Source: Candidatus Saccharimonadota bacterium
Lineage (GTDB): Bacteria > Patescibacteriota > Saccharimonadia > Saccharimonadales > OFTM59
Direction of reading: 5' to 3'
DNA length: 64,000 nt
NCBI GenBank assembly: GCA_029260875.1
Contig: JAJDCL010000028.1
Location: 1,161-65,160, forward strand
The position numbers and the translations under genes are program-made. Position 1 is the stretch's first letter. Every line of letters begins with the position of its first letter. Positions 522 to 24,797 of this stretch are shown here, piece after piece. Under the pieces are notes generated by a model that had not been told where the DNA came from, searched no databases, and worked only from the letters and a program-made list of their open reading frames with translations.

Positions 522-577
522 GTATGTTGTTAATTTATTCTACTGAGAAAGCAGTAGTATCGGTTATCTCACGGGTT

Positions 578-1003
578 TCAAGAAAGAAATATCATTAAGT
601 TAAAGATAGCAAAAAGGGATCCAAGGCCTATACCAATAATGCCGAGCGTTCTAAGCTTGGGGTTTAAATTGCCTTTGCTTACGGCGATTCCTCCTAGAAT
701 CCAAGCTATAATAGGTATCCAACAAAAAACTATGCTAAGAACTCCGAGCGTGATGGCCGGTTTTTGCCCTTTACTGTAATAATCGCTTTGGTCAGGAAAC
801 TGGCCATTTCCTACAGGTTGCTGCCAAGCCCCTTGGGGCGGTCCTTGGTAGGGGGTTTGGTTTGTCGGATACGAAGGCGCTACTGGTGGTTGTGCTGGCA
901 GCGGTTGTGGCGGTGCCTGCGGCTGTTGTGGTTGTTGTGCTGGTGGATAGCCGGTCGGCGTAGGCGGTTGTGGTTGATAAGGCTGGCTATTGTTCGGGTC
1001 CAT
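578..1003 (-). CDS. Small membrane protein with a Pro/Gln-rich N-terminus and a double-TM C-terminus (DUF4190-like)
   Basis: 141-aa ORF. The N-terminus is MDPNNSQPYQPQPP... low complexity. The C-terminus is two hydrophobic helices (LGVLSIVFCWIPIIAWILGGIAV / LGIIGIGLGSLFAIFNLMIFL). The + strand ORF 764-1012 is its mirror artefact. Confidence 0.55.
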   Translation of the reverse strand: MDPNNSQPYQPQPPTPTGYPPAQQPQQPQAPPQPLPAQPPVAPSYPTNQTPYQGPPQGAWQQPVGNGQFPDQSDYYSKGQKPAITLGVLSIVFCWIPIIAWILGGIAVSKGNLNPKLRTLGIIGIGLGSLFAIFNLMIFLS

Positions 1004-1128
1004 GAATCCTAAATTCCTTCATACAGTTATATTAGTTATGCTTACAGTTTAATATAAAACGACCAAATAACAAAAATGCGAGTGGCAGAAAGTCTTTAGT
1101 TGTTCTTATAAGAACCGCTAAGGGGCTA

Positions 1129-2170
1129 TTAGTTGCTTTGTTTTGCAAGCTCGCCGTAGGTTTCAGCCAGTTGTTTTTTAAGCTTAGCACGTGCCCGCCG
1201 CGCAAGGTAACGACCGATGAGCTTATCCCACATCAGCCACCATTTCAATGCGCCGATGAGACTAAAGCCGGGCGCTTTGATTTTGACGCTCTGACCCAGT
1301 TCAATATGCAATCGCGCCTGTGAAGGCACCGCAAAGATATCATCGTGCGCCAGCTTGTCGCCAACCTTTTTTAATACACCCTGCACAGTTTGAAACTTAT
1401 CCTCAATATCCTGCTGGCTCTCCGGATAGTCGCGCCAGTAGAAGTAAAGCCGATTTTCTATGATTTCTATATCACACAGCTGGGCGTGCTGGATAAGCGC
1501 CATCATGGCGTCGGGGGCCAAGACAGTTAAATCTGTTATTCCATATTTGTCCGGGGCGTAGAGCGAAATATTTGTAGAAATCACCCTCGAGATTAATCTT
1601 TTGCGATTCGTCAAAATCAAACGGCAAGGTATGTATGTCAGCTATTGTTGAATCAATCACCATGTGCGGTAAATGGCGCGGCAATGTAAACTCCATGACG
1701 GTATAATTCGGGATTGATAACTTGTCGTCATGAAACAGACTCTGGCGGTAGAACGAAAATGGCAGTCCCTGCATACGGCCGCTAATATGGTCGGCTATCC
1801 ATGGGGACGTTTCGTCTTTGGTGAATAATATTCCCGGCCTTGAAGTCGGGCTGTAAGTCGCGTCAAGACGAAAACCATTACGACTTGCAAACATCTGCAG
1901 TGCGCGATTATTAATAGTATAGCGTGTAACTTCTTGGTACATTAGATATATTAAAGCCGCAAAAAAGATAAATATAAATATTATGCCCAATAGCCACCCA
2001 GAAGAGTCAATATTTAATCTACCTACCGACACCACATCCCATACAAGCGCAATGACCAGAGATCCGCCCAATAAAACAGCCATGAAAAGATTGCTATGAT
2101 GCTCAGGCTTGCGATACGGACGCAAAGGTGAAAAATCTATAGATTGCCCTGTCGCCGGTGCGCTATTCAT
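1129..2170 (-). pseudogene. Membrane protein gene split into two overlapping reading frames (apparent +1 shift near 1555-1600)
   Basis: ORFs 1472-2170 and 1129-1620 overlap in different frames. Frame A reads ...INLEGDFYKYFAL and then turns to nonsense. Frame B picks up as ...SLYAPDKYGITDLTVLAPDAMMALIQH... and carries on as a plausible protein to 1129. Confidence 0.5.
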
Positions 2171-2354
2171 GCTGCTAAGTTTAGCACGGCAGGGCTTTAG
2201 TTCCCTGGTAATCTATTCTAGATTGTGCATAGTAATAGGGCGACGGGCTTGCCTTAAAATATTTCCAACTCTGATAAATCCAAGAACATGCCACCCGGCA
2301 TCTTCCAGGAAACTTTATAAGGTCTCACCCTGAAAGGTGTTGTTTTGTGTAATC

Positions 2355-2767
2355 TTAGTTTTGGGTTGGGTAAAAATCACCCTTCAGGTAGCTCTGTAGG
2401 GCCAGCTTGCTAGCGTCAAAATGAGGTTTTGGCACCTGGGAGAGCGGGCACCAAAATAGCTCCTGACATTTTTGTGGATCTAAAATGCGCGGCTCGCCCT
2501 CAAAAGTTTTGGCAACCAATACAACGGATTTAAAATGCACGCCGTCTTCTCTATATGTCTCTAGATTGTTCGTAATAGCTATGACTTGGGGTTGATGCCG
2601 TGCTCTTCTTGTAATTCCCGTTTTGCGCACTCCTAAAAGTTCTCTCCAATCTCTAAACTGCCGCCAGGGATGGAATGTTTTGGCGCATGGCTGCCTGTTC
2701 GTCGGCCAACAAGAACCTCTCCCTGGGCGTTTTCCACAATAACCCCCACCCTTGGTCTATTTTGCAT
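2355..2767 (-). pseudogene. NUDIX hydrolase gene with an in-frame TAG inside the Nudix box and a downstream frameshift
   Basis: Own translation gives MQNRPRVGVIV...PGGSLEIGENF-TAG(2633-2635)-ECAKRELQEEHGINPKS. This matches Gx5Ex7REUxEExGU except for the stop. The rest of the fold (…VIAITNNLETYREDGVHFKSVVLVAKTF…) continues in another frame after the CCCC run at 2588-2591. Confidence 0.7.
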
Positions 2768-2794
2768 AATAAACACCTCCATCAAATACGTCCA

Positions 2795-2879
2795 TGGTGC
2801 CGGAGAAGGGACTTGAACCCTCAATCCCGAAGGAACACGATTTTGAGTCGTGCGCGTATACCAATTCCGCCACTCCGGC
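2795..2879 (-). tRNA. tRNA-Leu(CAA), class II with long variable arm, CCA encoded
   Basis: Minus strand reads GCCGGAGTGGCGGAATTGGTATACGCGCACGACTCAAAATCGTGTTCCTTCGGGATTGAGGGTTCAAGTCCCTTCTCCGGCACCA. Acceptor is GCCGGAG/CTCCGGC, the anticodon loop is CU-CAA-AA, and the T-loop is GGTTCAAGTCC. Confidence 0.9.
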
Positions 2880-3071
2880 TCGTCAGAACCAACAGTCAGC
2901 TGACACAAAAGAAAACAAGTTTTCTTTTGTGTCACCCTCTAGCCGCCTCTTCCTCTTAGTTTTCCATACAGTCGCTTTTAGGCTCCTTGGTTTGAAAAAC
3001 TAGGTTAAAGCAAAACTCGGGGATTTGCCTAATAGGTAAGACGAAAGCATTATATTATACTTATATCTGTT

Positions 3072-4313
3072 ATGCCACCGGACGATGATTCGTTAGACGA
3101 GCTAAAGAAAAACCTGGGGCTACCGACAAAGCGAGATAAGGTGGTTCAGCCACTGCACGACCTGAATTCTAACGGCGACAACCCGGCCTTAAAACTTATT
3201 CGTGGCAAGATTGACGCTCTGTATGCAACCGAGCCGAATGCCAAAGAAGAGCTGGCCGAGGCCAGGGCCACCGTGCAACACCGGTCAAAACACCAAAAGT
3301 ATATGTACGATTTAAGCAAGTCAGGCAAGTCGCTGGCTGATATTCAGACCGCTTGGCACAATTATTACGCCAACTTGCCTGACCAAGAAAAACACGAGGT
3401 TTGGCAGGAATTTTATATCAATCATGCTAAAGCGACCCAAGCTGCCAAGCCACAAGTCACAAAGGCCGAAACCGGGCGTCCGATGGTCGCAACACCAACA
3501 GCACCCCCCCAGCCAGCACATCGCAAGATAACTGATAACCGCTCGGTTCATGAGCTGAAAAATCAGCTACTAAATAAAGTAAACGGCCGCGCCAAACAAA
3601 AGGCGCATCACCGTAAGTCCCTTATGTTTGGAGTAAGCATGGGACTTTTAATGACATTTATTATGTTGTTTGGGTTTTTTAACGAACGTTTTATTGCGCC
3701 CTTCTTAACACCCAGCAAGGCTTTAAGCGCTACACCAATTATCCTAGATTCTGACGCAACGGTCGGGCCAGAATCCAAGATAATCATCCCGAAGATCAAT
3801 GTTGAGATACCAATTGTATACGATGTTGCCTCGGTTGAAGAAGATGTCTTTCAGCAGGCTTTAGAAAACGGAGTTGTGCATTATAAGGGCACATCACACC
3901 CTGGCGAAACCGGCAATACGGTCATATTCGGGCACTCTAGCAACAATATTTTAAACCGTGGTAAATATAAGTTTGCGTTTGTGCTTCTAAGTCGCCTAGA
4001 AATCGGCGACACATTTATGCTAAACCACGGAGGCAGACGCTACGTATACAGGGTCAACAAGAAAGAGATAGTAAAACCCACTGACATATCTGTGCTTGCA
4101 CCAACAGAGAAGCCCTCAGTGTCACTGATTACCTGTGATCCACCTGGCACGGCAATCAATCGGTTGGTCGTAGTGGGGGAACAGATATCGCCCGACCCCG
4201 CAGCAAATATCGCCAGTAGCAGCCCAGGCGTGGCTCAAGGTGATCAGCCGACCGTATTGCCGTCTGATTCGCCCAGCCTATGGAGCCGATTCTGGGGCTG
4301 GCTCAGTTCCTAG
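3072..4313 (+). CDS. Sortase-family transpeptidase with a long N-terminal cytoplasmic extension and one TM segment
   Basis: 413 aa. It has a TM segment (SLMFGVSMGLLMTFIMLFGFF), then VIFGHSSNN..., then the sortase signature SLITCDPPGT (TLxTC-type catalytic Cys). Confidence 0.8.
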   Translation: MPPDDDSLDELKKNLGLPTKRDKVVQPLHDLNSNGDNPALKLIRGKIDALYATEPNAKEELAEARATVQHRSKHQKYMYDLSKSGKSLADIQTAWHNYYANLPDQEKHEVWQEFYINHAKATQAAKPQVTKAETGRPMVATPTAPPQPAHRKITDNRSVHELKNQLLNKVNGRAKQKAHHRKSLMFGVSMGLLMTFIMLFGFFNERFIAPFLTPSKALSATPIILDSDATVGPESKIIIPKINVEIPIVYDVASVEEDVFQQALENGVVHYKGTSHPGETGNTVIFGHSSNNILNRGKYKFAFVLLSRLEIGDTFMLNHGGRRYVYRVNKKEIVKPTDISVLAPTEKPSVSLITCDPPGTAINRLVVVGEQISPDPAANIASSSPGVAQGDQPTVLPSDSPSLWSRFWGWLSS

Positions 4314-4324
4314 TTCAGCCTCCG

Positions 4325-5803
4325 TTAGTTGTTTGATGTAACCAAAAGCTCAGTACGTAGTAAAGTAGCGCGCCCAACAATTTGTGAGTCCGATAACGTA
4401 TAAAGCGCAGTGTAATTACTGTTGAAGTAGGGCGTAGAACTAGAGTATGCAGACGATAGTTCTTGTTTGTTGGTACCGTCAAAGTCAAAAACATTAACGT
4501 GGTTATTGCTCACAAGCGTCAGGCGGTGACCATCCATCCAAACGGCTCTTTGAGGAGTGGCTAGCTCAAGCCCTGTATTGTAGCGATAGTGGCGAGCCGT
4601 CTCGGTATCATAAACGACAAATTTGCTACCCGACTGAATCTGTACAAAGCGGGCGTTAGTAGAAAACGATGCAAACTGGGGGTCTTCAATACGCAGAAGC
4701 GCAGCCGGGATAATCTTTGCTGCTGGGTTACGTCGCAACGCAAGAACCGGGTCGCGCAATATATACATCCTTTGATCATCAGTGGCACCAGCCAAGACGT
4801 ACCAGCGACCAGAAAAACGAGCTATATCCAGTATGTAGCTAGTATCGACCGGTAGCTCCTTAACGGTATAAATTTGGTCACCTTCACGAATACGCACCGC
4901 GACGTTTCCTTCCGCCGCACCGCTACTGGCAACGTACAAGAGCACATCGTTACCGTGAGATTTGAACTGTATGACACCGTTTAGTAGTGGCACGGGGGCC
5001 TGGCCGTTTAGTTCGGCTGTCATCAGCGTTTGAGCAGAACGGTCATGCAAGTAATAACGATCAAAGCGCTTATCGCGCAAAACTACATCTGTAAACACAG
5101 TGCCACTAAAATTGCGACTCAAATTGCGACTTAATGCAGGCGCCTCGTGGTCAATCAATACAAACTCAGTGCCTGTGTCAAATGTGTGCCTGACAACGAC
5201 GTGGCGATTGTCGGTTGACCATTCAACCACATCAATGTCATGCCGATCACCATTAATACTGAATAAATCTGGTGGCAGAGCAAGGTTAATAGCAGTGGCT
5301 AGCTCTGAATTTAGGTCGACCAAATCAAAACTTATGTGAGCACCGGGCTGCCTGACAATCAACCAGCGACGATCCGGGCTCTGCGTAGAAAAAACAGGCT
5401 TTTCTGCATAAAGTTGTGTCTCGCGCGACACCAATGATTCCGGAAACAACACCGGATAAACCAGTCGCTCGATTTTACCCCCGAGTAGGTTAATGGTTTT
5501 TTCCCATGTACGGTAACCAGCGCGCCTAACACTGATATCGTACTTGCTTGACGGCATAATTAGGCGTTGGTCTGTCGCCCCTTTTAATTCACCATTCACA
5601 TAAACATCTGCTCTCTCGGGATGGGCATCCACAAAAACTAAACCGTTCTGATTAATTGCCCCTGTCTGCAGGTCAAATGTATAGCCGTAGGCTTGCAGCA
5701 CCAGAAGTAGTGACACCAAACTAATAGCAACCACCATCAGCACATAGCCCACGTACAGACGTATGCGGTGTTGTCGTTGTTTGATTGGGTCTAGGAAATC
5801 CAT
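4325..5803 (-). CDS. Membrane-anchored PEGA-domain protein
   Basis: 492 aa. An N-terminal TM helix is followed by a PEGA-like segment (ADVYVNGELKGATDQRLIMPSSKYDISVRRAGYRTWEKTINL) and a long beta-rich region. Confidence 0.6.
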   Translation of the reverse strand: MDFLDPIKQRQHRIRLYVGYVLMVVAISLVSLLLVLQAYGYTFDLQTGAINQNGLVFVDAHPERADVYVNGELKGATDQRLIMPSSKYDISVRRAGYRTWEKTINLLGGKIERLVYPVLFPESLVSRETQLYAEKPVFSTQSPDRRWLIVRQPGAHISFDLVDLNSELATAINLALPPDLFSINGDRHDIDVVEWSTDNRHVVVRHTFDTGTEFVLIDHEAPALSRNLSRNFSGTVFTDVVLRDKRFDRYYLHDRSAQTLMTAELNGQAPVPLLNGVIQFKSHGNDVLLYVASSGAAEGNVAVRIREGDQIYTVKELPVDTSYILDIARFSGRWYVLAGATDDQRMYILRDPVLALRRNPAAKIIPAALLRIEDPQFASFSTNARFVQIQSGSKFVVYDTETARHYRYNTGLELATPQRAVWMDGHRLTLVSNNHVNVFDFDGTNKQELSSAYSSSTPYFNSNYTALYTLSDSQIVGRATLLRTELLVTSNN

Positions 5804-5943
5804 ATTTTTATTTTAGTCGAACGTGACTATAGTATAAATATCAGTAGGCTCCTTTGTCAAAAGAAGCGACAGGGCTTGCAGAAGTTAACCATTTGGGTTT
5901 AAGATACAAGTTGTTTTAACCAAAACATAAGAGGGTAGAGCTA

Positions 5944-7035
5944 GTGGCTCAAAATACAATCGAAATCAATGGCAGACATTACGACGCGTTATCTGGCAAA
6001 CTACTAGATAACGGCCATCTGAAACCGACCAAAAAAAGTAGTTCAAAAACCGGTACTCAGGTAGTAGACGGGTTCATAAGACGGCCAAAACAAGCCCTGC
6101 CCAGGCAAGCGACCCCTTCACACAAAGTGCATAGCAAAGCCTCTCACTCAAAAACCCTTATGAGAACGTCTGTGAAGAAACCGGCCCAAAAAATCACGGC
6201 AATACATAATAAGAATTACTCTACCTATCATCCCAACGAAAGCAACAGCTCAAGGACAGAAAGGCCAGATCACGTTGACAGCACGCGCATAGAGCGAGCA
6301 GCAGCCATACACAGAAGCAGCTTGGTGAGTAGATTTGGCGAGATTGGTAGTCATATAACCAAACGTGTTGCCCCTATAGCTGTCAAGCCCGCCCCTGAGC
6401 ACGGCAAAACCGCACTCCATAGCGCAAGCACCCCGATAGACTTACGAGGCACTAACCCTGCTAGTGTAGTAGAGGAACCGTTGAGCCCTTTTGACATTGC
6501 CCTGCAAAAGGCTGACTCGCACAAGCTATCGCGGACCAAGAGGCAATCATTAAAACAGCGTACCGCGCGCAAGCTACGTATAAGTACCCATGCGCTGAGT
6601 CTTGCTATGGGCGTATTTCTTGCATTATTTGTTGGGGGGATTCTTGCGTACCGCAGCGTCCCTCAAATTGCACTCAAAATTGCCTCCACACGTGCAGGGG
6701 TTAGAGCTCAACTACCATCCTATCAGCCGTCCGGCTTTTCGCTCAGCGGCCCAGTCCAATATGGTGATGGCGTGGTTACTTTAAAGTATGAGTCCAATTC
6801 TGATGACCGCAATTTTAGCGTGGTTCAGAAAAAGTCCGACCTAAATAGCCAGTCACTAGCAGAAAATTTCACAACCGCTCAAAGCACATATCAAACCTTT
6901 GAAGATAAGGGTCGTACAATTTTTGTTTACGAAGGCAGCAATGCCACATGGGTGAACGGCGGTGTGTGGTACACGGTAGAAGGCGAATCAGAACTTTCTA
7001 GCGACCAGCTCCGCCGAATTGTCTCCGGCCTTTAA
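5944..7035 (+). CDS. Hypothetical single-pass membrane protein (basic, Ser/Thr-rich N-terminal half)
   Basis: 363-aa ORF with a GTG start. It has a TM helix (LSLAMGVFLALFVGGILAY) and no motif I recognise. Confidence 0.5.
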   Translation: MAQNTIEINGRHYDALSGKLLDNGHLKPTKKSSSKTGTQVVDGFIRRPKQALPRQATPSHKVHSKASHSKTLMRTSVKKPAQKITAIHNKNYSTYHPNESNSSRTERPDHVDSTRIERAAAIHRSSLVSRFGEIGSHITKRVAPIAVKPAPEHGKTALHSASTPIDLRGTNPASVVEEPLSPFDIALQKADSHKLSRTKRQSLKQRTARKLRISTHALSLAMGVFLALFVGGILAYRSVPQIALKIASTRAGVRAQLPSYQPSGFSLSGPVQYGDGVVTLKYESNSDDRNFSVVQKKSDLNSQSLAENFTTAQSTYQTFEDKGRTIFVYEGSNATWVNGGVWYTVEGESELSSDQLRRIVSGL

Positions 7036-12755: not shown

Positions 12756-12949
12756 CTAGATTTATCCTTGTGTTTTATAATGATGATGGTCGTGTGGGTA
12801 CTTTTGTCTTAATGGGCGGATTTCTACTCGCAGGCTTATACAAACCATTTTTATCCGTAGTCTTGCGGATGATAAAACCCCAAAGTCGTTTTATCTACAA
12901 AGGCCTGGCGACGGCCAACTCTTCAAATCCTAAAAAGGATGGTTTGTAT

Positions 12950-13291
12950 ATGAATTATCAAAATCCGGACGGCGTAACCGTCCACGATGGGTTCCCAAAC
13001 CCAGCCACCGACACTTCACTCCAACCTCTTGATCTAAACAGCCTGTTAATAACACACACCGCTACAACCTACTTAATGCGCCTGTCTGGAGATGAATGGC
13101 AGGCTTTAGGCATTTTTGACGGCGATATATTAATTGTTGACCGATCCGTAAATGCCCGCCCAAATGATTTAGTTGTCTGGACCAAAGCCGACCGGTTCAT
13201 CATCAGCCACGAACACCAAGTAGAGGAGGGCAGCCCCGTCTGGGGCGTAATCACCTCAACCATCCACCAGTTTAGAAAGGTGAGCAGATGA
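12950..13291 (+). CDS. UmuD-like S24-fold protein lacking the Ser/Lys dyad and the cleavage site
   Basis: It aligns by eye to E. coli UmuD from CGFPSPA onward (here DGFPNPA...LDLNSLLITH...SGDEW...DGDILIVD...). I prefer the ATG at 12950, preceded by AAAAGGA, over the track start at 12770. The stop overlaps the umuC start in ATGA. Confidence 0.7.
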   Translation: MNYQNPDGVTVHDGFPNPATDTSLQPLDLNSLLITHTATTYLMRLSGDEWQALGIFDGDILIVDRSVNARPNDLVVWTKADRFIISHEHQVEEGSPVWGVITSTIHQFRKVSR

Positions 13292-14574
13292 AGTCACCAG
13301 TTTTTGCACTTATAGACTGCAATAACTTCTTCGTTTCATGTGAGAGGCTATTCAGGCCGGACCTGGAAGGCAAACCAGTAGTGGTTATGTCGTCCGGCGA
13401 TGGCTGCGTGGTGGCGCGCAGCAACGAGGCCAAGGCGCTTGGCATTCCAATGGGCGCGCCAGTATTCAAATATCGTCATATCTTTAAAGCACAGGGCGTA
13501 GTGCAGTTCAGCGGGAACTTTGAATTGTACGGTGATATTTCTCGTCGTATTACCGATGTACTAACTTCTGTTACCCCAAAAATTGAGGTGTATTCGGTGG
13601 ATGAATCGTTTTTAGATCTTGGCGAGCTAGCCATTGATGATTACGAGGCGTGGGGCAGGACAGTGAGCGACAAAATCTGGCAATGGATCGGGGTGCCGGT
13701 ATCCGTAGGCATAGCGCCTACCAAAACTCTCGCCAAACTAGCTGCCGACCAGGTCAAAAAAGACCCCGACCTCAATAGCGTCCTGAACCTCATAAGTGTG
13801 AAAGGTTTATCCTTTCACACTTGGTTGCGGACTACGCCTATCCAGGATGTGTGGGGTGTTGGGTGGCGGTCGGCACCGAAAATGAAGGCCGAGGGGATCC
13901 ATAACGCACTGCAACTCAGCCAGTTAAGGCCACAACGTGCTCAGCAGTTGATGGGTATTCACGGCCGGCAACTAGTAGCAGAATTAAACGGCCTGAGTTG
14001 CTATCCGCTAGAGCGAGAAGAAAGGGCACAAAAAAGCATAGCCCGTACCCGCACGTTTGGCGAAGATACAAGTGAGCTTGGTTCTTTAGAGGCAGCATTG
14101 GCATCATTTACCACCAAAGCCGCCTTCCGGTTGCGCGCAGACCGTCAGCTTGCCAAGCGAGCCGGTGTGTTTGCCAGCACCAATAAGCACAAACCCGGCT
14201 ACCGGACGTGGCAACGGGAGGTGTGTTTCCCGGTTGCGACAGCTGATACGGGCAAACTTATCGGAAGTGTCATAGACTTATTTCGTGAGTTTTACAATCC
14301 GCACGTTAAGTACCACAGGGCGGGGGTCTGGTTACAAGATTTTGTATCGGCTGATTATTTGCAAACTGACGTGTTCGGGGCTGTAAATGTAGTGGAAGAA
14401 GACCGATCTAAGGCCCGTATGCAAACCCTAGATTCCATCAACGAGCGTTTCGGTCGCAGCACCATCCGCTACGCCACCGAAGATCTCGGCAACGCCTGGC
14501 AGCCCAAGCATCAGCTACGCAGCCCCCGCTATGTCACCCGCTGGAACGAACTGCCGGTTGTTCGCAGTAGCTAA
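13288..14574 (+). CDS. umuC: Y-family translesion DNA polymerase (UmuC-like)
   Basis: 428 aa with the N-terminus FALIDCNNFFVSCERLFRPDLEGKPVVV and the motif YSVDESFLD. Translationally coupled to the umuD-like gene. Confidence 0.9.
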   Translation: MKSPVFALIDCNNFFVSCERLFRPDLEGKPVVVMSSGDGCVVARSNEAKALGIPMGAPVFKYRHIFKAQGVVQFSGNFELYGDISRRITDVLTSVTPKIEVYSVDESFLDLGELAIDDYEAWGRTVSDKIWQWIGVPVSVGIAPTKTLAKLAADQVKKDPDLNSVLNLISVKGLSFHTWLRTTPIQDVWGVGWRSAPKMKAEGIHNALQLSQLRPQRAQQLMGIHGRQLVAELNGLSCYPLEREERAQKSIARTRTFGEDTSELGSLEAALASFTTKAAFRLRADRQLAKRAGVFASTNKHKPGYRTWQREVCFPVATADTGKLIGSVIDLFREFYNPHVKYHRAGVWLQDFVSADYLQTDVFGAVNVVEEDRSKARMQTLDSINERFGRSTIRYATEDLGNAWQPKHQLRSPRYVTRWNELPVVRSS

Positions 14575-14587
14575 ATCCCATCTGTTA

Positions 14588-14596
14588 TGCTACAAT
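14588..14596 (+). promoter_or_regulatory. Extended -10 promoter (TGCTACAAT) for the tRNA-like/tRNA-Glu transcription unit
   Basis: TGCTACAAT lies at 14588-14596, 15 nt before the tRNA-like 5' end at 14611. The -35 (TAGCTA at 17-nt spacing) is weak. Confidence 0.4.
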
Positions 14597-14610
14597 TTTC
14601 CGGTCTTTAA

Positions 14611-14799
14611 GGCCCCGTCGTCTAGTGGTCCAAGATATCTGCATCTTTACCCCACAAAACAGGTTTTGCGGGGACCCCGTATCATCCAGAAGATCGCGGG
14701 TTCGGTGTACGAAGAACGGAGTGATAAGATAAGCTTGCTTAATCTTAGCGCGAGTACCGCAGGAAAGAGCGTAGCGATATCCCGCAGATTTAACAATAA
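14611..14799 (+). ncRNA. tRNA-derived structured module (Glu/Asp-like 5' half and split T-arm, no acceptor 3' strand); pseudo-tRNA or novel tRNA-like RNA
   Basis: GGCCCCG-TC-GTCT-AGTGGTCCA-AGAT-A-TCTGC-ATCTTTA occupies 14611-14649. A 24-nt hairpin follows at 14650-14673, then CCAGA-AGATC-GCGGG-TTCG at 14686-14704. A structured insert of about 75 nt follows, then CCCGC at 14781-14785. No CGGGGCC acceptor partner precedes tRNA-Glu. Confidence 0.3.
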
Positions 14800-14874
14800 G
14801 GTCCCATCGTCTAGCGGTTAGGACACCAGGTTCTCATCCTGGCAACAGGGGTTCGATTCCCCTTGGGATCACCA
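14800..14874 (+). tRNA. tRNA-Glu(CUC), CCA encoded
   Basis: Sequence is GGTCCCATCGTCTAGCGGTTAGGACACCAGGTTCTCATCCTGGCAACAGGGGTTCGATTCCCCTTGGGATCACCA. The anticodon stem is CCAGG/CCTGG, the loop is TT-CTC-AT and the T-loop is GGTTCGATTCC. Confidence 0.9.
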
Positions 14875-16375
14875 CAAGAGACTCATCTACATCAGATGGG
14901 TCTTTTTTGTTTGCTATAACAGATAACAGCGGGCTTAATTTTGCGGTTCCAAAACCGTTTTCAAAGTCATATACGATTCCATCTGGAAAAAGTAACTTTT
15001 GAATATCTTGTCGTATCTTGGTATTTGCACGGTTCCAGAATATGTCAGGTGTGGTTATGAAACTCATTGCATCATCTACGATCTGTTCTTTTTCCTTTAC
15101 GTACTGGTCGGCCTCAATTTGCTCATCCTCTAGATCATTAATCTTTTCTGCAATATTGGCGATCTGAGCCTGCTTATCCTCCTCAGTGATCTTATCCAAG
15201 ATAAACTTTTCTGTGGTAGCTTTTCTAAGTTGGCGGTAATAGTCGATCTCCTTGCTTATGCGTGCGGCGTTCTCAACAGCTTGGCCATACTCATCGTTCC
15301 ACGCTCTGAGCACGATTACCTTGTATAGCTTGGTGATACCACTGAGGGGTCTTAGGTTCTCGAGGTACTCCCTGAATAATTTATGCGTTATATCAGCATC
15401 TGCGCTGGCTTTTCTGCCAGTTACTTTCTTTTTGCAGGTAGGCTGATTGCAATGGTACATGGGGTAGTAGCTACCACTCCTGCCTCTAGACGAGCTGGCT
15501 GTAAGTGCCTTGCTGCAATTTGAGCACAGTAAGGTGCCTCTCAATGGGAACATGTCATCGCCACGAAGTACGTAGGTCTTTTTTGAGCCCTGTATCAAGT
15601 CAATGTTCTTGTAGATTACTTCCTCATCAACCAACGCCTTGTGCATGCCTCTATGGACTTTAGGGGATAGCTTATTCTTGGTATAACCCGCATAGATTAG
15701 ATTCTGGAGTATCTTTTTCAATGCATCAGTTGATTTTGGCTTACCACTCTTGGTCTGTATGCCTTGCGTAAACGCATAGCGTGCAATCTGTGCAAGTGAA
15801 AAAGTACCAGTTGAGAACTTAACGAGAACATCAGTAATCTTTGATGCGTAGACAGGATCGGCAACAACACGTGCGTTCTTTTTAGTGTAGCCAATAGGTG
15901 CCGAGTGTGGCCAGCCACCTTGCTCGACCCTTACACGCATGCCGCTCACTGTACGTATCGCACGGATCTCATTATCGAACTGTGCCGCAGCTGCAAGGAT
16001 TGCCTCAAGAAATCTGCCGACAGGATCATCATCAATAGGCTCAGTAACAGATACAATCCTCACACCATACTTAGCAAGTGCAACCTTAATACCATAGTAA
16101 TCACCTAGGTTGCGTGCCAGTCGATCAATTTTCCAGATGTATAGAATCTCAACCTGATTCTTTTTATCTTTGACGTATTGGAGTAGGTTCTGTAACTCTG
16201 GTCGATCTATGAACTTGGCCGATTCGCCTCGCTCTCTGAATATGTTTTGTTCTGGAACTAGAGTTTTCTGATCTTGTGCAAACTTTTTACACTCTTTCTC
16301 TTGAGAATCTAGGCTGGTTTTGCCATCAACTTGTTCCTTTGTGGAGACACGTGTATAGATAATTCCAACGCTCAT
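14834..16375 (-). CDS. Large serine recombinase (integrase)
   Basis: 513 aa. The N-terminal resolvase domain has IIYTRVSTKEQ (catalytic Ser) and IDRLARN. The recombinase domain has GGWPHSAPIGY. A Cys-rich zinc ribbon (LLCSNCSKAL...YHCNQPTCKKK) and a coiled-coil tail follow. The 3' end is antisense to the terminator and tRNA-Glu. Confidence 0.9.
   Translation of the reverse strand: MSVGIIYTRVSTKEQVDGKTSLDSQEKECKKFAQDQKTLVPEQNIFRERGESAKFIDRPELQNLLQYVKDKKNQVEILYIWKIDRLARNLGDYYGIKVALAKYGVRIVSVTEPIDDDPVGRFLEAILAAAAQFDNEIRAIRTVSGMRVRVEQGGWPHSAPIGYTKKNARVVADPVYASKITDVLVKFSTGTFSLAQIARYAFTQGIQTKSGKPKSTDALKKILQNLIYAGYTKNKLSPKVHRGMHKALVDEEVIYKNIDLIQGSKKTYVLRGDDMFPLRGTLLCSNCSKALTASSSRGRSGSYYPMYHCNQPTCKKKVTGRKASADADITHKLFREYLENLRPLSGITKLYKVIVLRAWNDEYGQAVENAARISKEIDYYRQLRKATTEKFILDKITEEDKQAQIANIAEKINDLEDEQIEADQYVKEKEQIVDDAMSFITTPDIFWNRANTKIRQDIQKLLFPDGIVYDFENGFGTAKLSPLLSVIANKKDPSDVDESLVVIPRGIEPLLPG
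14881..14908 (+). terminator. Intrinsic terminator of the tRNA-Glu unit; also part of the left att-like repeat
   Basis: ACTCATCT-ACATC-AGATGGGT forms 8 bp including one G.U, followed by CTTTTTT. Confidence 0.7.
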
Positions 16376-16413
16376 GGAACCAGTATATAACGAAACTGTA
16401 ACTGTTATGAAAA

Positions 16414-16572
16414 CTAATTTAGATGTTTTGGAACCGAACTACGTATTGTTTCTCTCGCAACGGATTCCAGTAACACAATCAGGCGTTCTATCTCATCATC
16501 AGAAAACTGCTTGAACTCTGTACCAAGCAGTTTTCTCGCCTCTTTAATTGTGATGATGGGATCTGGTTGCAT
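16414..16572 (-). CDS. Small ORF (52 aa) upstream of and co-oriented with the recombinase; possible directionality or DNA-binding factor
   Basis: Own translation gives MQPDPIITIKEARKLLGTEFKQFSDDEIERLIVLLESVARETIRSSVPKHLN. It is below the track's size cut-off and ends 38 nt before the recombinase start. Confidence 0.35.
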   Translation of the reverse strand: MQPDPIITIKEARKLLGTEFKQFSDDEIERLIVLLESVARETIRSSVPKHLN

Positions 16573-16743
16573 TTGTGGCTCTCGTGCGAGCCAAGAAAAA
16601 AACAGCCCGCAACTTTAATAGTTGTCTTGGCTGTTTGCCTATGCAGGAAATTATACAGCTCACAGCAAAATCCGTAAATGTTACCACGGTGTTAACAACA
16701 TAGCCTATAGGTGTTTCTACCCCCGATGTAATAGAATAAAAAG

Positions 16744-16864
16744 GTCTAAACCAACAATTGAGGCGCACCAACAGTGCGTGATTAAGCCTTGTAATGGGCA
16801 TCACGCAGGCAGTAGGGCTTAATAACTCTATTGTTGGTTTAGACACCAGCGTGGTGTCCTTTTT
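16744..16864 (+). ncRNA. Candidate sRNA of about 120 nt: closed three-way junction plus intrinsic terminator
   Basis: P1 pairs 16744-16758 with 16830-16844 (15 perfect bp). P2 is 16763-16779. P3 pairs 16781-16788 with 16816-16823. The terminator GACACCA-GCG-TGGTGTC-CTTTTT lies at 16842-16864. A TAGAAT -10 lies at 16732-16737. Confidence 0.4.
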
Positions 16865-16881
16865 AATTTGAGGAGAAAATA

Positions 16882-16986
16882 ATGGGTTTCATTAGAAACG
16901 ATTGGCATGAGCAAGGTATTGTTACCAAGATACTACTTGTTCTTGGTCTGATCATCGCAGCCATTGTTTGGCTTGCTAAAAACTGA
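16882..16986 (+). CDS. 34-aa single-TM micro-protein
   Basis: AGGAG at 16871-16875 lies 6 nt before the ATG. The product is MGFIRNDWHEQGIVTKILLVLGLIIAAIVWLAKN. Below the track's size cut-off. Confidence 0.4.
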   Translation: MGFIRNDWHEQGIVTKILLVLGLIIAAIVWLAKN

Positions 16987-17087
16987 TTGTTTTTCAGTTT
17001 TTTCAGTTACAAAAGCGGGTCTGAAAAACAATTGTTTTTCGTTTTTCCGTTTTAGAAAATCAGCTTAAAAAGTTGATTGTTTTTCAA
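16985..17087. repeat. Iteron/operator array: ATTGTTTTTC three times at exact 45-bp spacing, the middle copy within a perfect 18-bp palindrome
   Basis: ATTGTTTTTC occurs at 16986-16995, 17031-17040 and 17076-17085. GAAAAACAATTGTTTTTC occupies 17023-17040. Confidence 0.6.
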
Positions 17088-17148
17088 TTAATCAATTTTC
17101 CCACCAACTCCTTTGAATAAGATAGGCATCAGGGGTACTATATTAGTA

Positions 17149-18846
17149 ATGAAAGCAACTAAGGTAACAGTCCATAACTACCGATCGATACACGATGCCA
17201 CCTTTGATCTGGCTGACTATGCTCTGCTCATCGGATCCAACAATGCTGGCAAGAGTACATTTGCTAACGCCATCAGGGTTTTTTATGAAAAAGACGGTTT
17301 CAAGTACGATTCAAAGAAAGATTACCCATTTGATCTAGTAAAAGATGCCGAGCGTGAATCTTGGGTGGAAATATGGTTTGAGCTCGATCAAGATGAGTAC
17401 GATAACCTCGCAGAGAAGTACAAGCAAGTTGATAAGGTGTTGAAAGTTCGCAGGTATCTAGAAACCGCAACTTACAAGAACCACGAGGGCAAGGCTGGAT
17501 CTGGTCAGATTTTTGGCTACAAGACTGACGGCACCTTAGATAACGAGGCGTTTTATGGCGCAAAGAACGTTCAAAGTGGAAAGTTCGGAGAGCTGATTTT
17601 TATACCTGCCATCAGTAAGGTAGATGATCACACAAAGTTTAGCGGTGCATCTGCGTTGAGAGACCTTGTAACTGATATCCTCTCTGGTACCACTGACTTT
17701 GATGCCAACTACGGCGCATTAGAGGAAAACTTTACGACTTTCTCTAGTGCTATGCAATCCTCCAGTACCGCCGATGGCCGTTCCCTAAAGGCTGTTGAGG
17801 ACTCGCTGACTGGCATGCTAGAGGATTGGGGTATTGGGTTCAAGTTGACTTGGAAAACTCCCTCGATAGCTGAGATCATCAAGTCCATGATTAACTCCAC
17901 CTACACCGACCTAGCGCACGACAAAGAGATATTGATAACAGATGCTGGCTCTGGTTTTCAGCGACACCTTATCTACAGTGTTATCAAGACGGGTGCAGAT
18001 TTTGCTGCAAAAAAACCTAAAGCTAAAAAGACTAGCTTTGAACCAGAGCTTAGATGGATCGTATTCGAGGAACCAGAGGCTTTTCTCCATCCTCCGCAGC
18101 AAAACGAGCTTTCACGTAGCTTGCAGAAACTATCCGAGCTAGATAGTACACAGGTGTTATGCACCACTCACTCGCCGAACTTTGTAAACAAGAATATGCA
18201 GGCCATCACCAGCGTTGCTCGTGTGCAGAAAAACAAGAAAGGCTATGCTGATTTCTATCAGATTAGCGACACGACTTGGCAAGATATCACCGACAATAAC
18301 CAACTTATTAGCGCACTGCCATCAGCACCAGCGGCGCACCCTGATGATCTAGATCCTGAAATGGAGGCCATCAAGTACGCAATTTATCTGAATCCAGATC
18401 GTGCATGCATGTTCTTTGCTAAGAGAGTGCTGATTGTTGAGGGCGCAACAGAGGTTGCGTTAATAAACCACTTGATTGATATCGGTGAAATAAAGGCGAG
18501 CCTATCTGGCCTGCATGTAATTGATGCAATTGGCAAGTTCAACATCCATAGGTTTATGAAACTCCTTGAGTGTTTGGGCATTGAGCACTCCGTCTTGCAT
18601 GATGCTGATGCACCAGCAAAGACCTTACAGCAAGAGATTAATCAGCTTATCCAAGATTCCTCCAATACTTTTACGTACAAGATTGAAACGCTTGACCCTG
18701 ATCTAGAAACTTACCTAGGCCTGCCTGCGGTTGGTTCACGCCACGATCGTAAGCCACAGAGTGCGATCTATAACTACAACAACAGCAACTACGACACAGC
18801 AAAGATGGCCAGTTTCAAAACTCTGATTGAGAGCCTTGTTTCCTAG
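17149..18846 (+). CDS. OLD-family nuclease (ABC-type ATPase + C-terminal TOPRIM), stand-alone
   Basis: Motifs are Walker A GSNNAGKST, Walker B IVFEEPEAFLHP, H-loop TTHSP, and TOPRIM LIVEGATE ... HDADA. I prefer the ATG at 17149 over the track's TTG at 17113, which is in the same frame. Confidence 0.85.
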   Translation: MKATKVTVHNYRSIHDATFDLADYALLIGSNNAGKSTFANAIRVFYEKDGFKYDSKKDYPFDLVKDAERESWVEIWFELDQDEYDNLAEKYKQVDKVLKVRRYLETATYKNHEGKAGSGQIFGYKTDGTLDNEAFYGAKNVQSGKFGELIFIPAISKVDDHTKFSGASALRDLVTDILSGTTDFDANYGALEENFTTFSSAMQSSSTADGRSLKAVEDSLTGMLEDWGIGFKLTWKTPSIAEIIKSMINSTYTDLAHDKEILITDAGSGFQRHLIYSVIKTGADFAAKKPKAKKTSFEPELRWIVFEEPEAFLHPPQQNELSRSLQKLSELDSTQVLCTTHSPNFVNKNMQAITSVARVQKNKKGYADFYQISDTTWQDITDNNQLISALPSAPAAHPDDLDPEMEAIKYAIYLNPDRACMFFAKRVLIVEGATEVALINHLIDIGEIKASLSGLHVIDAIGKFNIHRFMKLLECLGIEHSVLHDADAPAKTLQQEINQLIQDSSNTFTYKIETLDPDLETYLGLPAVGSRHDRKPQSAIYNYNNSNYDTAKMASFKTLIESLVS

Positions 18847-19151
18847 CTAGCAGCTAGGTTTCCATCACTATTACTCAAACAGATACAGGAGTGAGTTGCC
18901 GCACAGCGTTAACTATCTGCCACATAGCTATTAGTTCTCGCTTGATTTGTTTCCAGTTCGCACCTATCAAGCTCACCATTTAGAAGCTCATCTACTAGAT
19001 GGGCTTTTTACATGGCTCATGCTCAACAAAACTGGCGGTTTACCGTATACTGAAGCATAAGCGCGTTTTTACACGCGATATTTCCATATGGCGGGCAATT
19101 TATGTACACACAAAAGACCAAAATTAGTACGACATCGGATGGGCTGCGTTA

Positions 19152-20879
19152 ATGCAGTTCGTGTCTGACAAATATTACTATTGGTATAACTGGGCCGTAA
19201 CAGCCGTAGGTCTGCTGATGACTAGCGGTAGCATTGTTGCACTAACCGCGCCCATAGGTGTTTTTACCCCCGAAAACGGTTTTATTGCTATGACAGCTAT
19301 TATTGGGCTAACCCAAGTCATCTATGGCGTGATATTCTTTAGGCTAAAGGCAAGGAGCAGCCCCTGGATAGCCGCTTTGATATCTGCCATGCTGCTTGCT
19401 CTTAACATTATTAACCTTATGCAAGACACCGGCCAATTGCACTCACAGTACTGGGTGCTCTGGGCTTTGCAGGCATTTTTTAGCGGACTGTTTGGTGCAT
19501 ATGTGGTTGCTGCTGTTTGTTTTCTTATTACTTTATATTTTGTGCTTGTAGCAACAGGCGAAACCGGCACCCAGCGGTTTGATATGATCAGCCTGGGCGC
19601 TGTTATTGGCACATACCTGATTGGTATAGCAGGGTATCTGGTGTGGCGAAACCTATACGTTGACCACGAAACAAAGCGGGTCCAAAAACTAACAGGCCAA
19701 CTTAAAACAAATCAGCAACAGGCAGAAATGCTCATCCAATCTATAAGTGATGGGCTGGTAGTAATTACGCCTGAGGGCAAAATCAGCCTGATTAATCCTG
19801 CTGCTGCTAAACTAACTGGCTGGGCAGTAGACGAGGCAATCGGCCTTGATGCGCGCCTGGTTATTAAGCTCCAAGAAGAAGACGGCAAGCCAATTGAAGA
19901 GATAAGCAACCCACTTAAAGCCGTATTTGATAAATCCCAAACCGTCAGCACCGAGAAGCAGCTCGTTAAACGTGACGGCAAGTCGGTCATAGTCTCTATA
20001 GTAGTTTCGCCGGTCATATTACCAAAAACGGATGCCGTAAACAGTGCAGTGGCTATCATAAGAGATATCAGCGTCAGCCGTGCCGAAGAAAAGCGCCGAG
20101 CCGACTTCATAAGTACAGCCTCTCACGAAATGCGCACGCCAGTCGCAGCCATAGAAGGCTATCTAGCGCTAGCCCTAAACAATAAAGTATCGTCCATTGA
20201 CAGTAAGGCGCGTGGCTTTTTGGAAAAAGCTCATTCTTCAACGCAGCACCTGGGTAAGCTTTTTCAGGATTTGCTTACCAGCGCCAGGGCAGAAGACGGA
20301 AGGCTTGTTAGCCACCCTGTAGTTATAGAGATGGGCTCGTATCTTGAGCAGTTGACCGACTCTTTGAGATTTGCCGCCGAAAAAAAGGGCCTGATGATGG
20401 ATTTCGTTATAGGCGCCGAGGGCAATATAACAGCGGGTAGCAAGGTAATTAAGCCGCTATACTATGTCCAGGTTGACCCAGATCGCATAAGAGAGGTTGT
20501 AACCAATCTGTTTGACAACGCAACCAAGTATACAGAAGCAGGGAAAATATCTGTCGGGCTTACTGGCAACAATGATGTTATACAGATATATATCAAGGAT
20601 ACTGGTGCGGGCATACCAGCTGACGACATCCCGCATCTTTTTCAGAAGTTTTACAGAGTAGACAGCTCGGCTACACGCACAATCGGCGGTACCGGGCTCG
20701 GGCTGTTCATTTGTCGCAAGATAATCGAGCTTTATAGTGGCCGTATCTGGGTAGAAAGCGAGCTTAACAAGGGCAGTACGTTCTACATTAATCTACCAAG
20801 GTTAAGTAGCCAAAAAGCCGCTGAACTGCAGGCCACCGAGACAGAACAATCATCAACCTTATCCCAGCCCATAAACTGA
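19152..20879 (+). CDS. Membrane sensor histidine kinase (multi-TM + PAS + HisKA + HATPase)
   Basis: 575 aa with the H-box SHEMRTPVAAIEGYL, the N-box NLFDNATKY and the G-boxes DTGAGI / GGTGLGL. Confidence 0.9.
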   Translation: MQFVSDKYYYWYNWAVTAVGLLMTSGSIVALTAPIGVFTPENGFIAMTAIIGLTQVIYGVIFFRLKARSSPWIAALISAMLLALNIINLMQDTGQLHSQYWVLWALQAFFSGLFGAYVVAAVCFLITLYFVLVATGETGTQRFDMISLGAVIGTYLIGIAGYLVWRNLYVDHETKRVQKLTGQLKTNQQQAEMLIQSISDGLVVITPEGKISLINPAAAKLTGWAVDEAIGLDARLVIKLQEEDGKPIEEISNPLKAVFDKSQTVSTEKQLVKRDGKSVIVSIVVSPVILPKTDAVNSAVAIIRDISVSRAEEKRRADFISTASHEMRTPVAAIEGYLALALNNKVSSIDSKARGFLEKAHSSTQHLGKLFQDLLTSARAEDGRLVSHPVVIEMGSYLEQLTDSLRFAAEKKGLMMDFVIGAEGNITAGSKVIKPLYYVQVDPDRIREVVTNLFDNATKYTEAGKISVGLTGNNDVIQIYIKDTGAGIPADDIPHLFQKFYRVDSSATRTIGGTGLGLFICRKIIELYSGRIWVESELNKGSTFYINLPRLSSQKAAELQATETEQSSTLSQPIN

Positions 20880-23450: not shown

Positions 23451-24797
23451 ATGAGTAAACTTCCGATTGTGGCTATTGTGGGGCGTGCTAATGTTGGCAA
23501 ATCGTCCTTGTTCAATGCGGTTTTAGATCGGCGTGAAGCAATTGTCGCAAGAGAGCCAGGGACAACCAGAGACAGCATAACCGCAAAAGCGGGGTATGAC
23601 GGCCAACACTTCTGGCTGGTTGATACCGCGGGCTTAAAAACAGCTGAGGATGATTTTGAATTTACCATCCAAGAGCAGATTGCTCAGGCAGCAGACAGCG
23701 CCGATGTTATATGGGTCGTGATTGAAGCTGATGTGCAAATTAGCGAAGAAGATCGCCGAGTAGCAAAGCTGGCCCTAAAAAGTCGCAAACCTGTCTATTT
23801 AGTGGTTAATAAAGCCGACAAAAAACCCAAAGCGCAAATAGACGACTACAGGCGACTCGGCATAAAAGACATCTTTCTAACCAGTGCCACTCAAAACCGT
23901 GGCATAGATGAGCTGCTAGGTAATCTTGTAGAATCAATCCCCAGTGCGTGGTTAGAGGATGATGACGACCGCTTGCATGTAGCGCTGCTTGGTCGCCCAA
24001 ACGTTGGTAAATCATCGTTGTTCAATACACTCGCCAAAAAGCAGCAAGCCATAGTAGCCGACAAGGCAGGCACCACACGCGACATAAACCGAGCGATTGT
24101 GCGTTATCAGGGCAGGGAAATTGAACTGATGGACACCGCTGGGATCCGTCGTAGCGGCAAAATAGAAAAAGGCATAGAACGCTTCAGTGTCATCCGCGCC
24201 CTTAGCGCTATCGAACAGGCTGATATTTGTTTTCTTCTAATGGACGCAAACGAGCTGCACGTAGCGCTAGATCAAAAGATAGCGGGTATGGTAAAGGAGG
24301 CAGGCAAGGGCCTGGTTTTGATTGTCAGTAAATGGGACAGCCTTGATAAAGATGCTTACACGCGCGACAAACTTGCACCGGAGATTGCTTATGATTTTGA
24401 TTTTGTACCCTGGGCGCCATTGATCTTCACTAGTGCCGTAAGCGGACAAAATGTGACCAAGCTATTTGATCTAGCGCTAGACATAGACAAAAAACGGCAA
24501 ACCCGCATCAAAACAAGCGAGCTAAACCGCTGGCTCAAAGATATTACAACCGCGCATCCACCAGCAGGCCTAAAAAACCGCATGCCAAAACTAAACTACA
24601 TCTTGCAAGAAGACGATAACCCGACCAATTTCAAAGTTTACGGCGCCCACACTAAGTTTCTGCACTGGAGTTATAAACGATTTATGGATAAAGAGCTGCG
24701 GTTGAAATACGGCTTTGAGGGCACCCCCGTTCGTTTCTGGTTCTTTGAGAAACACGTAACCCACAAACACGGCAGCAAACCAATAAGCAAAGAGTAG
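23451..24797 (+). CDS. der: Ribosome-associated GTPase Der/EngA (two tandem G domains + KH-like domain)
   Basis: It has two P-loops (GRANVGKSSLFN and GRPNVGKSSLFN), DTAG motifs and NKAD/SKWD. Confidence 0.95.
   Translation: MSKLPIVAIVGRANVGKSSLFNAVLDRREAIVAREPGTTRDSITAKAGYDGQHFWLVDTAGLKTAEDDFEFTIQEQIAQAADSADVIWVVIEADVQISEEDRRVAKLALKSRKPVYLVVNKADKKPKAQIDDYRRLGIKDIFLTSATQNRGIDELLGNLVESIPSAWLEDDDDRLHVALLGRPNVGKSSLFNTLAKKQQAIVADKAGTTRDINRAIVRYQGREIELMDTAGIRRSGKIEKGIERFSVIRALSAIEQADICFLLMDANELHVALDQKIAGMVKEAGKGLVLIVSKWDSLDKDAYTRDKLAPEIAYDFDFVPWAPLIFTSAVSGQNVTKLFDLALDIDKKRQTRIKTSELNRWLKDITTAHPPAGLKNRMPKLNYILQEDDNPTNFKVYGAHTKFLHWSYKRFMDKELRLKYGFEGTPVRFWFFEKHVTHKHGSKPISKE

Follow-up and report, generated by a model that had tools for sequence, protein, structure and literature searches.

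A serine-recombinase element with an OLD gene at tRNA-Glu

We analysed a 64,000-nt stretch of contig JAJDCL010000028.1 from a Candidatus Saccharimonadota bacterium, here called the window, in whose numbering all coordinates are given. It contains a gene for an OLD-family ATPase-Toprim nuclease within a small integrative element that, judged by sequence comparison, spans about 14875-18979 (4.1 kb) at the 3′ end of a tRNA-Glu(CTC) gene. From left to right, the tRNA gene is followed by a recombinase gene and a 52-aa open reading frame (ORF), both on the minus strand, a non-coding region, a 34-aa micro-ORF, three repeats and OLD (Table 1). OLD is the main cargo gene of the element, beside the micro-ORF. 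After OLD come 133 nt of non-coding DNA and then a PAS/HisKA/HATPase histidine kinase gene (19152-20879), the next gene downstream, with no ORF of at least 50 aa listed in 18847-19151. An earlier annotation of this DNA, referred to as the original prediction, had put the kinase past a right repeat; this holds, and the repeat is real but short (TCACCA).

Table 1 Features of the element and the evidence for each
Feature	Position	Strand	Evidence
tRNA-Glu(CTC); attL at its 3′ TCACCA	14800..14874	+	tRNA calls; L001 homology from tRNA +1; syntenic tRNA in L085
Large serine recombinase/integrase, 513 aa	14834..16375	-	Pfam; PHROG; family-wide tRNA overlap; pN/pS
52-aa ORF directly upstream of the recombinase, same strand	16414..16572	-	tblastn in related loci; pN/pS
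Structured RNA leader or small RNA (sRNA), with intrinsic terminator (16842-16866)	16739..16873	+	Covariation; conservation with L001; terminator prediction
Micro-ORF, 34 aa, MGFIRNDWHEQGIVTKILLVLGLIIAAIVWLAKN; ribosome-binding site GAGGAG	16882..16986	+	Synonymous-only differences from L001
Three 22-nt repeats, 45-nt spacing, palindrome (e.g. GAAAAACAATTGTTTTTC) then T run	16978..17089		Repeat finder; conserved in L001
OLD-family ATPase-Toprim nuclease, Class 1 type, 565 aa	17149..18846	+	Family; structure; P2 Old alignment; invariance; pN/pS
Conserved right end (attR arm), ending ...CAAGCTCACCA	18860..18979	+	Homology to L086, L094, L087 and L001

The boundaries are set by a second copy of the element. 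In a Logan contig (ERR1883821; locus L001) that encodes an OLD 97% identical to that of the window, 14800-18979 (~4.2 kb) is shared at 91% nucleotide identity with unrelated flanks. The homology starts at tRNA +1 and stops after ...CAAGCTCACCA at 18979. This end repeats the TCACCA of the tRNA-Glu 3′ end, which places TCACCA at each of the two junctions. The part of the tRNA from T-loop to CCA reappears in the distal arm as a degenerate copy. The crossover would lie within TCACCA. No sequence of the expected circular junction (...CAAGCTCACCA joined to CAAGAGACTC...) was found.

Chromosomal relatives were located through Der (23451-24797), which shares 72-77% identity with proteins labelled Candidatus Saccharimonadales or Saccharibacteria, in keeping with the episymbiont lineage suspected for the host. 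One relative (L085) has an empty site, with umuC, a 487-aa gene, tRNA-Glu(CTC) and, 109 nt further, the kinase. The closest relative genome (L084, GCA_029260855.1; Der 95% identical) carries another serine-recombinase element at this position. Its positions 1-6200 hold an element with the same leader RNA, a 164-aa ORF, a Dam-like methyltransferase and then a 475-aa gene, which may be cargo or chromosomal; its chromosome is again homologous to the window from 19021 on. Relatives thus use the tRNA-Glu site as a hot spot for more than one kind of element. The same block in the different flank of L001, the empty site of L085 and the different element of L084 establish the carriage by a mobile element that had been proposed for OLD.

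The last ~120 nt of the element (18860-18979) match the distal ends of three elements with other cargo (L086, L094 and L087) at 76-78% identity. Together with the window and L001 these make five sequences, in all of which homology ends after CTCACCA and which all end ...CAAGCTCACCA. Att half-sites of serine integrases are typically much shorter than this conserved arm of ~120 nt, which may contain further binding sites or a promoter.

OLD is intact and predicted to be catalytically complete

The ORF listing gives 17113-18846(+), and a start at ATG 17149 yields 565 aa, the modal length of the homologues and near the 586 aa of P2 Old, as had been noted. All motifs previously read from the DNA are present in the translation: GSNNAGKST (Walker A, residues 29-37), IVFEEPEAFLHP (Walker B region, residues 304-315), TTHSP (residues 339-343) and the Toprim motifs LIVEGATE (residues 428-435) and HDADA (residues 484-488).

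Family identity was confirmed by profile searches. Pfam reports AAA_15 over residues 1-346 (7e-32) and OLD-like_TOPRIM over residues 422-487 (2e-17). Among PADLOC models the best is 'Old' (3e-60), ahead of AriA (2e-32) and the GajA models (1e-28 or worse). No NCBIfam equivalog reaches its cut-off, retron_eff_Eco8 scoring 59.8 bits against a cut-off of 250. The retron Eco8, MADS and PtuA equivalogs were rejected because their scores are far under the cut-offs. E. coli YbjD was also rejected as the nearest relative, as its alignment has 26% identity and covers 106 Toprim residues only.

In the ATPase we assigned Walker A K35, Walker B E307/E308, D-loop H314 and H-loop H341, and in the Toprim domain E431, E435, D485, D487, D518/E520 and K535. 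P2 Old (from AF063097) was aligned over 91% of the window protein at 24% identity, which pairs K35 with K37, E307 with D299, H314 with H306 and H341 with H332 in the ATPase, and E431 with E398, E435 with E402 and D485/D487 with D453/D455 in the Toprim domain. Mutation of each of these aligned catalytic residues in P2 Old abolishes killing in vivo (PMC7049728).

The first phmmer match in the PDB is Thermus scotoductus (Ts) OLD, a Class 1 enzyme (6p74, 5e-12). In this alignment VEGATE falls on VEGYGD (E377, D381) and HDADA on HDEDV (D431, D433), the four Ts residues being metal ligands (PMC7049728). By alignment to both Ts OLD and P2 Old, E431, D485 and D487 are the metal-A ligands (Glu + DxD), and E435 aligns with Ts D381 and P2 E402. 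In alignments of 22 and 75 homologues the assigned residues show no or almost no variation, and the same is true of D518-x-E520 and R534-K535. Hence no catalytic residue is missing at the positions matched to P2 Old and Ts OLD.

Between the window and the L001 copy (91% nucleotide identity), the ratio of nonsynonymous to synonymous differences per site (pN/pS) for OLD is 0.044 over 167 differences, with pS of 0.39. Therefore the gene is under purifying selection. On these alignments OLD is an intact gene for an ATPase-Toprim enzyme predicted to be catalytically complete.

OLD is of the Class 1 type

An AlphaFold2 model of OLD built from the 75-sequence alignment has a predicted local distance difference test score (pLDDT) of 85.6 and a predicted TM score (pTM) of 0.83. 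In a Foldseek search of the PDB the top match is 6p74 (E 2e-23, TM 0.59/0.64), followed by GajA (1e-16) and then the retron Eco8 OLD. In the modelled Toprim domain, helix 492-503 is followed by 5 residues and then by strand 509-515. As no helix stands between α3 and β4, the 'insert 3' of Class 2 is absent from the model. Two extra C-terminal helices (532-564) are predicted.

The context was examined for partner genes. Among the ORFs between the tRNA at 14800 and the kinase there is no UvrD, reverse transcriptase or separate Toprim gene. None of the ORFs of the 4.1-kb element has a reverse-transcriptase domain, and no GajB/UvrD-like helicase lies in the element or its flanks, so that the locus is not a Gabija system. 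ATPase and Toprim are in one ORF, not split as in AriA/AriB. OLD is thus Class 1 by its modelled structure and, having no partner gene, Class 1 by context. The Class-1-like single gene of the original prediction, including its lack of a helicase, reverse-transcriptase or AriB-like partner, is upheld on both grounds.

Class 1 OLD nucleases are rare, being present in 0.45% of genomes (PMC12392090), and are described as single genes not near other defence genes (PMC10568477). The window OLD lies away from other defence genes, whereas many of its orthologues are inside type I restriction-modification (R-M) operons or defence islands.

Many homologues of OLD are neighbours of defence genes

The OLD subfamily, strikingly well conserved, is found at 45-50% identity in Proteobacteria, Planctomycetota, Nitrospirota, Chloroflexota, Acidobacteriota and archaea, a patchy cross-phylum distribution that argues for horizontal spread. 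The closest OLD from a named genome is 64% identical and comes from a Saccharimonadia metagenome-assembled genome (MAG). Since genes of the subfamily are also found in other Saccharibacteria and Parcubacteria MAGs (L050, L055, L074), retention of OLD in a small genome is not exceptional. It had earlier been thought notable.

Neighbourhoods were assessed from crude ORF calls in 63 loci, whose immediate neighbours were scanned with PADLOC and Pfam; 60 loci were scored upstream. The type I specificity subunit (hsdS) is upstream of OLD in 14-16 of the 60, with methylases in several more, and many hsdS-OLD pairs overlap by 4 nt (ATGA). Downstream, a type I restriction endonuclease is found in 7/63 by PADLOC and in 9/63 by Pfam HSDR_N. 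Among the loci L009-L082, orthologues frequently lie between hsdS and hsdR, with 4-nt overlaps of start and stop (e.g. L012, L014, L017, L021, L036, L059, L081). Other neighbours include Shedu SduA, SoFic, Mrr and bSEFIR; of two closer relatives, the OLD of L006 is beside GmrSD and an EcoRI-type methylase, and that of L007 beside an SLFN-type helicase, HNH, SEFIR-TIR and PLD. UvrD is downstream in none of the 63 loci, and reverse transcriptase in none. A tblastn search found no type I R-M genes in the window.

Extra defence genes are known in type I R-M operons, such as rloA/rloB in Campylobacter, Abi and PARIS-type genes. The orthologues resemble these embedded genes, while the window copy is without R-M neighbours. 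With so many homologues in operons of type I R-M, this subfamily does not sit well with the published picture of Class 1 OLDs as genes that stand in isolation (PMC10568477), and the textbook view is to be qualified.

The explanation that we consider least likely, and to which we give very little credence, is a housekeeping function for the gene (DNA repair, replication or the cell cycle), comparable to that of the archaeal OLD-family ATPase Cran1. OLD does lie 2.6 kb from umuDC, and one archaeal OLD class is reported to have a cell-cycle role (PMC12796447). On the other hand, OLD is missing from the same locus in the close relatives L084 and L085, lies between the att sites of an integrase element and is spread patchily across phyla at 45-50% identity. 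Its neighbours in other genomes are defence genes, and the homologues lie in defence or R-M loci instead of housekeeping operons, contrary to what a constant housekeeping linkage would require.

A structured RNA, a micro-ORF and repeats precede OLD

The region 16575-16880 is 98-100% identical between the window and L001 although pS is 0.39, and the RNA core within it is ~100% identical. The RNA folds with a 12-bp outer helix around inner helices, followed by the intrinsic terminator at 16842-16866. A -10-like box (TAGAAT, TATAAT or TATAGT) is 6 nt upstream of the RNA in three elements.

Copies of the RNA were found in L084 (2321-2463), L103 (5616-5745), L100 (5253-5407), L095 (6463-6605, minus strand) and L108 (5036-5186), the ones in L100, L095, L108/L109 (a duplicate) and L110 being recovered with a covariance model made from four copies. 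In all, the model gave hits in 6 further loci, which represent 5 distinct elements. In an alignment of six distinct sequences, itself fitted to the model, 90.5% of cells pair compared with 29-42% for slid partners, and 17 of 36 pairs are compensatory, a number reached by 0 of 500 shuffles. The RNA adjoins the first cargo ORF from upstream in the window and L001, L084, L103, L095 and L100, the ORFs differing among elements. It recurs before unrelated cargo without a reverse transcriptase. Rfam has no family for it, returning only two tRNAs (14400-19300 in E-value mode; the whole window in gathering mode). We regard 16739-16873 as a candidate new structured RNA, supported by covariation. A 100-aa minus-strand ORF at 16544-16846 was rejected as a gene, as a 1-nt indel relative to L001 breaks its frame and the ORF call in L001 differs.

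The micro-ORF differs from that of L001 at seven nucleotides, all seven of them synonymous, and the protein is 100% identical. This indicates that the micro-ORF is translated. It has a strong ribosome-binding site, and its predicted product, a peptide that crosses the membrane once and has a hydrophobic helix at its C-terminus, is similar in kind to type I toxins or small membrane proteins.

The three repeats sit between the micro-ORF stop and the OLD start. Of the OLD loci examined, the window and L001 alone contain the micro-ORF and the repeats, and both features were rejected as general companions of OLD. Regulation of OLD by the upstream RNA, the micro-ORF or the repeats is plausible.

OLD could instead depend on a partner, either type I R-M in trans or the 34-aa membrane peptide as the second part of a two-part system. 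The frequent hsdS upstream (up to 16/60, many with ATGA overlaps) and hsdR downstream (7-9/63) would fit the former, and the latter is suggested by the purifying selection on the micro-ORF and its presence with OLD in both element copies. We nevertheless consider partner dependence rather unlikely, because type I R-M genes are absent from the 64-kb window, the genes next to most homologues are unrelated and the micro-ORF is in no other OLD locus examined. Moreover, the Class 1 OLDs of P2 and Vibrio cholerae (Vc) work alone (PMC12392090).

The recombinase family carries exchangeable cargo

The recombinase matches Resolvase (1e-29), Recombinase (9e-7) and Zn_ribbon_recom (1e-3) in Pfam and integrase in PHROG (2e-71), and has a YTRVS motif with the invariant nucleophile S11. 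Its pN/pS between the window and L001 is 0.045 (pS 0.39), indicating strong purifying selection. The last 13 codons and the stop codon are antisense to the 3′ half of tRNA-Glu (14834-14874).

This overlap is common to the family. More than 1600 recombinase homologues were found, and in 44 metagenome loci nearly all complete copies end ~38-41 nt inside a convergent tRNA. The clades track tRNA identity, with Glu-CTC in the clade of at least 70% identity, Met-CAT in that of 50-63%, and Arg, Ala and Leu tRNAs elsewhere. In the window and in loci L086-L113 the T-loop, read in antisense, encodes the conserved C-terminal G-I/F-E-P, and the stop codon falls within the anticodon loop, likewise in antisense. 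In a model of the excised circle the recombinase ORF would extend to 534 aa, and several homologues have 531-534 aa.

The 52-aa ORF recurs upstream of the recombinase in 24 related loci (tblastn) and has a pN/pS of 0.054. It has no Pfam or PHROG match, and is probably a directionality or regulatory factor.

OLD is in none of the 44 other recombinase-family loci, which carry instead a PLD-family nuclease, a KAP NTPase, an SF1 helicase or a Dam-like methylase. Thus, OLD is exchangeable cargo, dispensable for mobility. Scans of IMG/VR with recombinase and OLD profiles returned no close relatives, and so give no evidence that the element is phage-derived. In L094, L087 and L088, tRNA-Glu and the element are inverted between umuC and the histidine kinase relative to the window and L086, which could reflect inversion of the whole unit or independent insertions.

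OLD might serve the element itself, through addiction that kills cells losing the element or through exclusion of rivals from the tRNA-Glu hot spot. Different elements in this hot spot and the precedent of P2 Old, a prophage gene that kills cells (PMC12445682), speak for such a role, and the hydrophobic peptide by a structured RNA is like type I toxin-antitoxin loci, a matter of resemblance only. However, neither a partner nor complementarity of an antitoxin kind was identified, sister elements of the recombinase family are without OLD, and most OLD homologues lie in defence or R-M loci of chromosomes instead of beside recombinases. Service to the element appears to us improbable, even more so than partner dependence.

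A search for literature on OLD or serine-recombinase elements in Saccharibacteria found nothing relevant. The element family and the leader RNA appear undescribed in the literature searched and to be more novel than the OLD gene, which adds one more case to an already known type of system. We tentatively entertain a wider view, though with more doubt than belief, that OLD is one interchangeable cargo of an undescribed family of miniature tRNA-targeting serine-integrase elements in Saccharibacteria. Its members would share the tRNA-antisense recombinase end, the 52-aa ORF, the ~120-nt distal arm and a covarying, terminator-bearing leader RNA of ~130 nt that gates whichever defence gene is plugged in (OLD, PLD nuclease, KAP NTPase or methylase), with RNA, micro-ORF and repeats forming a regulated trigger for OLD. 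The integrase, 52-aa factor, att arms and leader RNA could serve as an integration and expression tool for the genetically hard Saccharibacteria.

A probable stand-alone defence nuclease

The reading that we favour, and hold to be likely, is that OLD is a catalytically complete, stand-alone Class 1-type enzyme, carried as cargo of the 4.1-kb serine-recombinase element at tRNA-Glu(CTC), and acts as a single-gene defence against phages or other mobile elements. The function, substrate, trigger and regulation that we infer for it are as follows. The N-terminal ABC-type ATPase with its inserted helical dimerisation region would be a switch or sensor, and the C-terminal Toprim domain a two-metal nuclease. 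Upon infection, the ATPase dimer, by binding or hydrolysing ATP, would license the Toprim domain to cut nucleic acid, either phage DNA (by nicking, as Vc OLD does) or host tRNA anticodon stems (as P2 Old does). Cutting would halt phage replication, possibly at a cost to the cell.

No sigma-70-like promoter was found between the RNA terminator and OLD, which suggests that OLD transcripts arise at the leader promoter and reach the gene by read-through. Transcription would probably start at the promoter of the structured RNA and pass through its terminator and the hairpin/T-run repeats. This need for read-through would keep basal OLD expression low.

The missing promoter is also one of several points that weigh against the stand-alone defence reading. 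The assignment of D518/E520 as the metal-B pair and of K535 as the catalytic Lys (P2 D541/E543/K550) comes from position and invariance only and is thus putative. Identity to characterised OLDs is low, 24% with P2 Old and 16% with Ts OLD in the structural alignment. In addition, about a quarter of the homologues overlap type I R-M genes by 4 nt, and the subfamily may therefore often work with R-M, which is absent from the window but may be encoded elsewhere in the genome.

P2 Old and Vc OLD act alone in defence (PMC12392090, PMC12445682), and the characterised Class 1 defence OLDs fall in separate clades (PMC12392090). As a compact, clearly bounded cassette from an ultra-small episymbiont lineage, the element would offer a clean case for the sufficiency of a single OLD in defence. 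To our knowledge, P2 Old and Vc OLD are the only Class 1 OLDs with a demonstrated defence role.

P2 Old (UniProt P13520) is, like the window protein, a single ATPase and Toprim polypeptide of similar length, encoded by a single gene on a mobile element adjacent to an att end, and the aligned residues essential in it are all conserved in the window OLD. It differs in its carrier, which is a prophage instead of a serine-recombinase element. The co-transcribed tin-like gene is not in the window, where the 34-aa micro-ORF and the RNA leader are upstream instead. P2 Old is triggered by RecBCD inhibition, and its substrate is tRNA anticodon stems with a paired CNG. It is a prophage gene that kills cells and cuts these stems (PMC12445682). 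A more speculative extension of the wider view starts from this cleavage and from the restriction of the tRNA-Glu differences between the two element copies to the anticodon arm, which could mean that the window nuclease and the abutting tRNA-Glu have a functional link.

Ts OLD (6P74) is both the best PDB sequence match and the best fold match. The two share the aligned Toprim ligands, a Walker B Glu in place of Asp (Ts E276) and, in the model, the lack of Toprim insert 3. On the other hand, they differ in overall identity (16%) and in the two extra C-terminal helices of the window model. Ts OLD also has an unusual H140, near which the window protein would have Gln142, the only nearly invariant Gln of the family near that position.

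Vc OLD, by its published description, is likewise a bacterial single-gene Class 1 OLD that is chromosomal and defends without a partner. It is a DNA nickase that blocks phage replication (PMC12392090), and by analogy we favour it as the functional model for the window OLD.

GajA (Class 2), the retron Eco8 effector (Class 3) and AriA/AriB (Class 4) have the same ATPase-Toprim architecture but give weaker hidden Markov model (HMM) and fold matches. Unlike Gabija, retron and PARIS systems, the window has no GajB/UvrD, no reverse transcriptase with msr/msd RNA and no split between ATPase and Toprim.

The tRNA-Glu locus

Directly to the left of tRNA-Glu, umuD-umuC (S24 peptidase and Y-family polymerase) occupies 12770-14574(+), syntenic in L085, L086 and L094. 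Between umuC and the tRNA, a relic of a tRNA-Glu is found at 14611-14693(+), of the type present at the empty site of L085. In the relic, part of the anticodon loop has given way to a hairpin-forming insertion of 40 nt, and the gene breaks off in the T-loop. A promoter-like TATGCTACAAT is just upstream of it. The functional tRNA-Glu at 14800 may thus have been imported, replacing the native one.

The tRNA at 14800-14874 and that of L001 (5679-5753) agree at all but 3 of their 75 positions, and each of the three lies in the anticodon arm. The anticodon is CTC in the window and TTC in L001, accompanied by a compensatory stem pair (CCAGG/CCTGG versus CCGGG/CCCGG). Both tRNA stems have the paired CNG motif that is the reported cleavage site of P2 Old.

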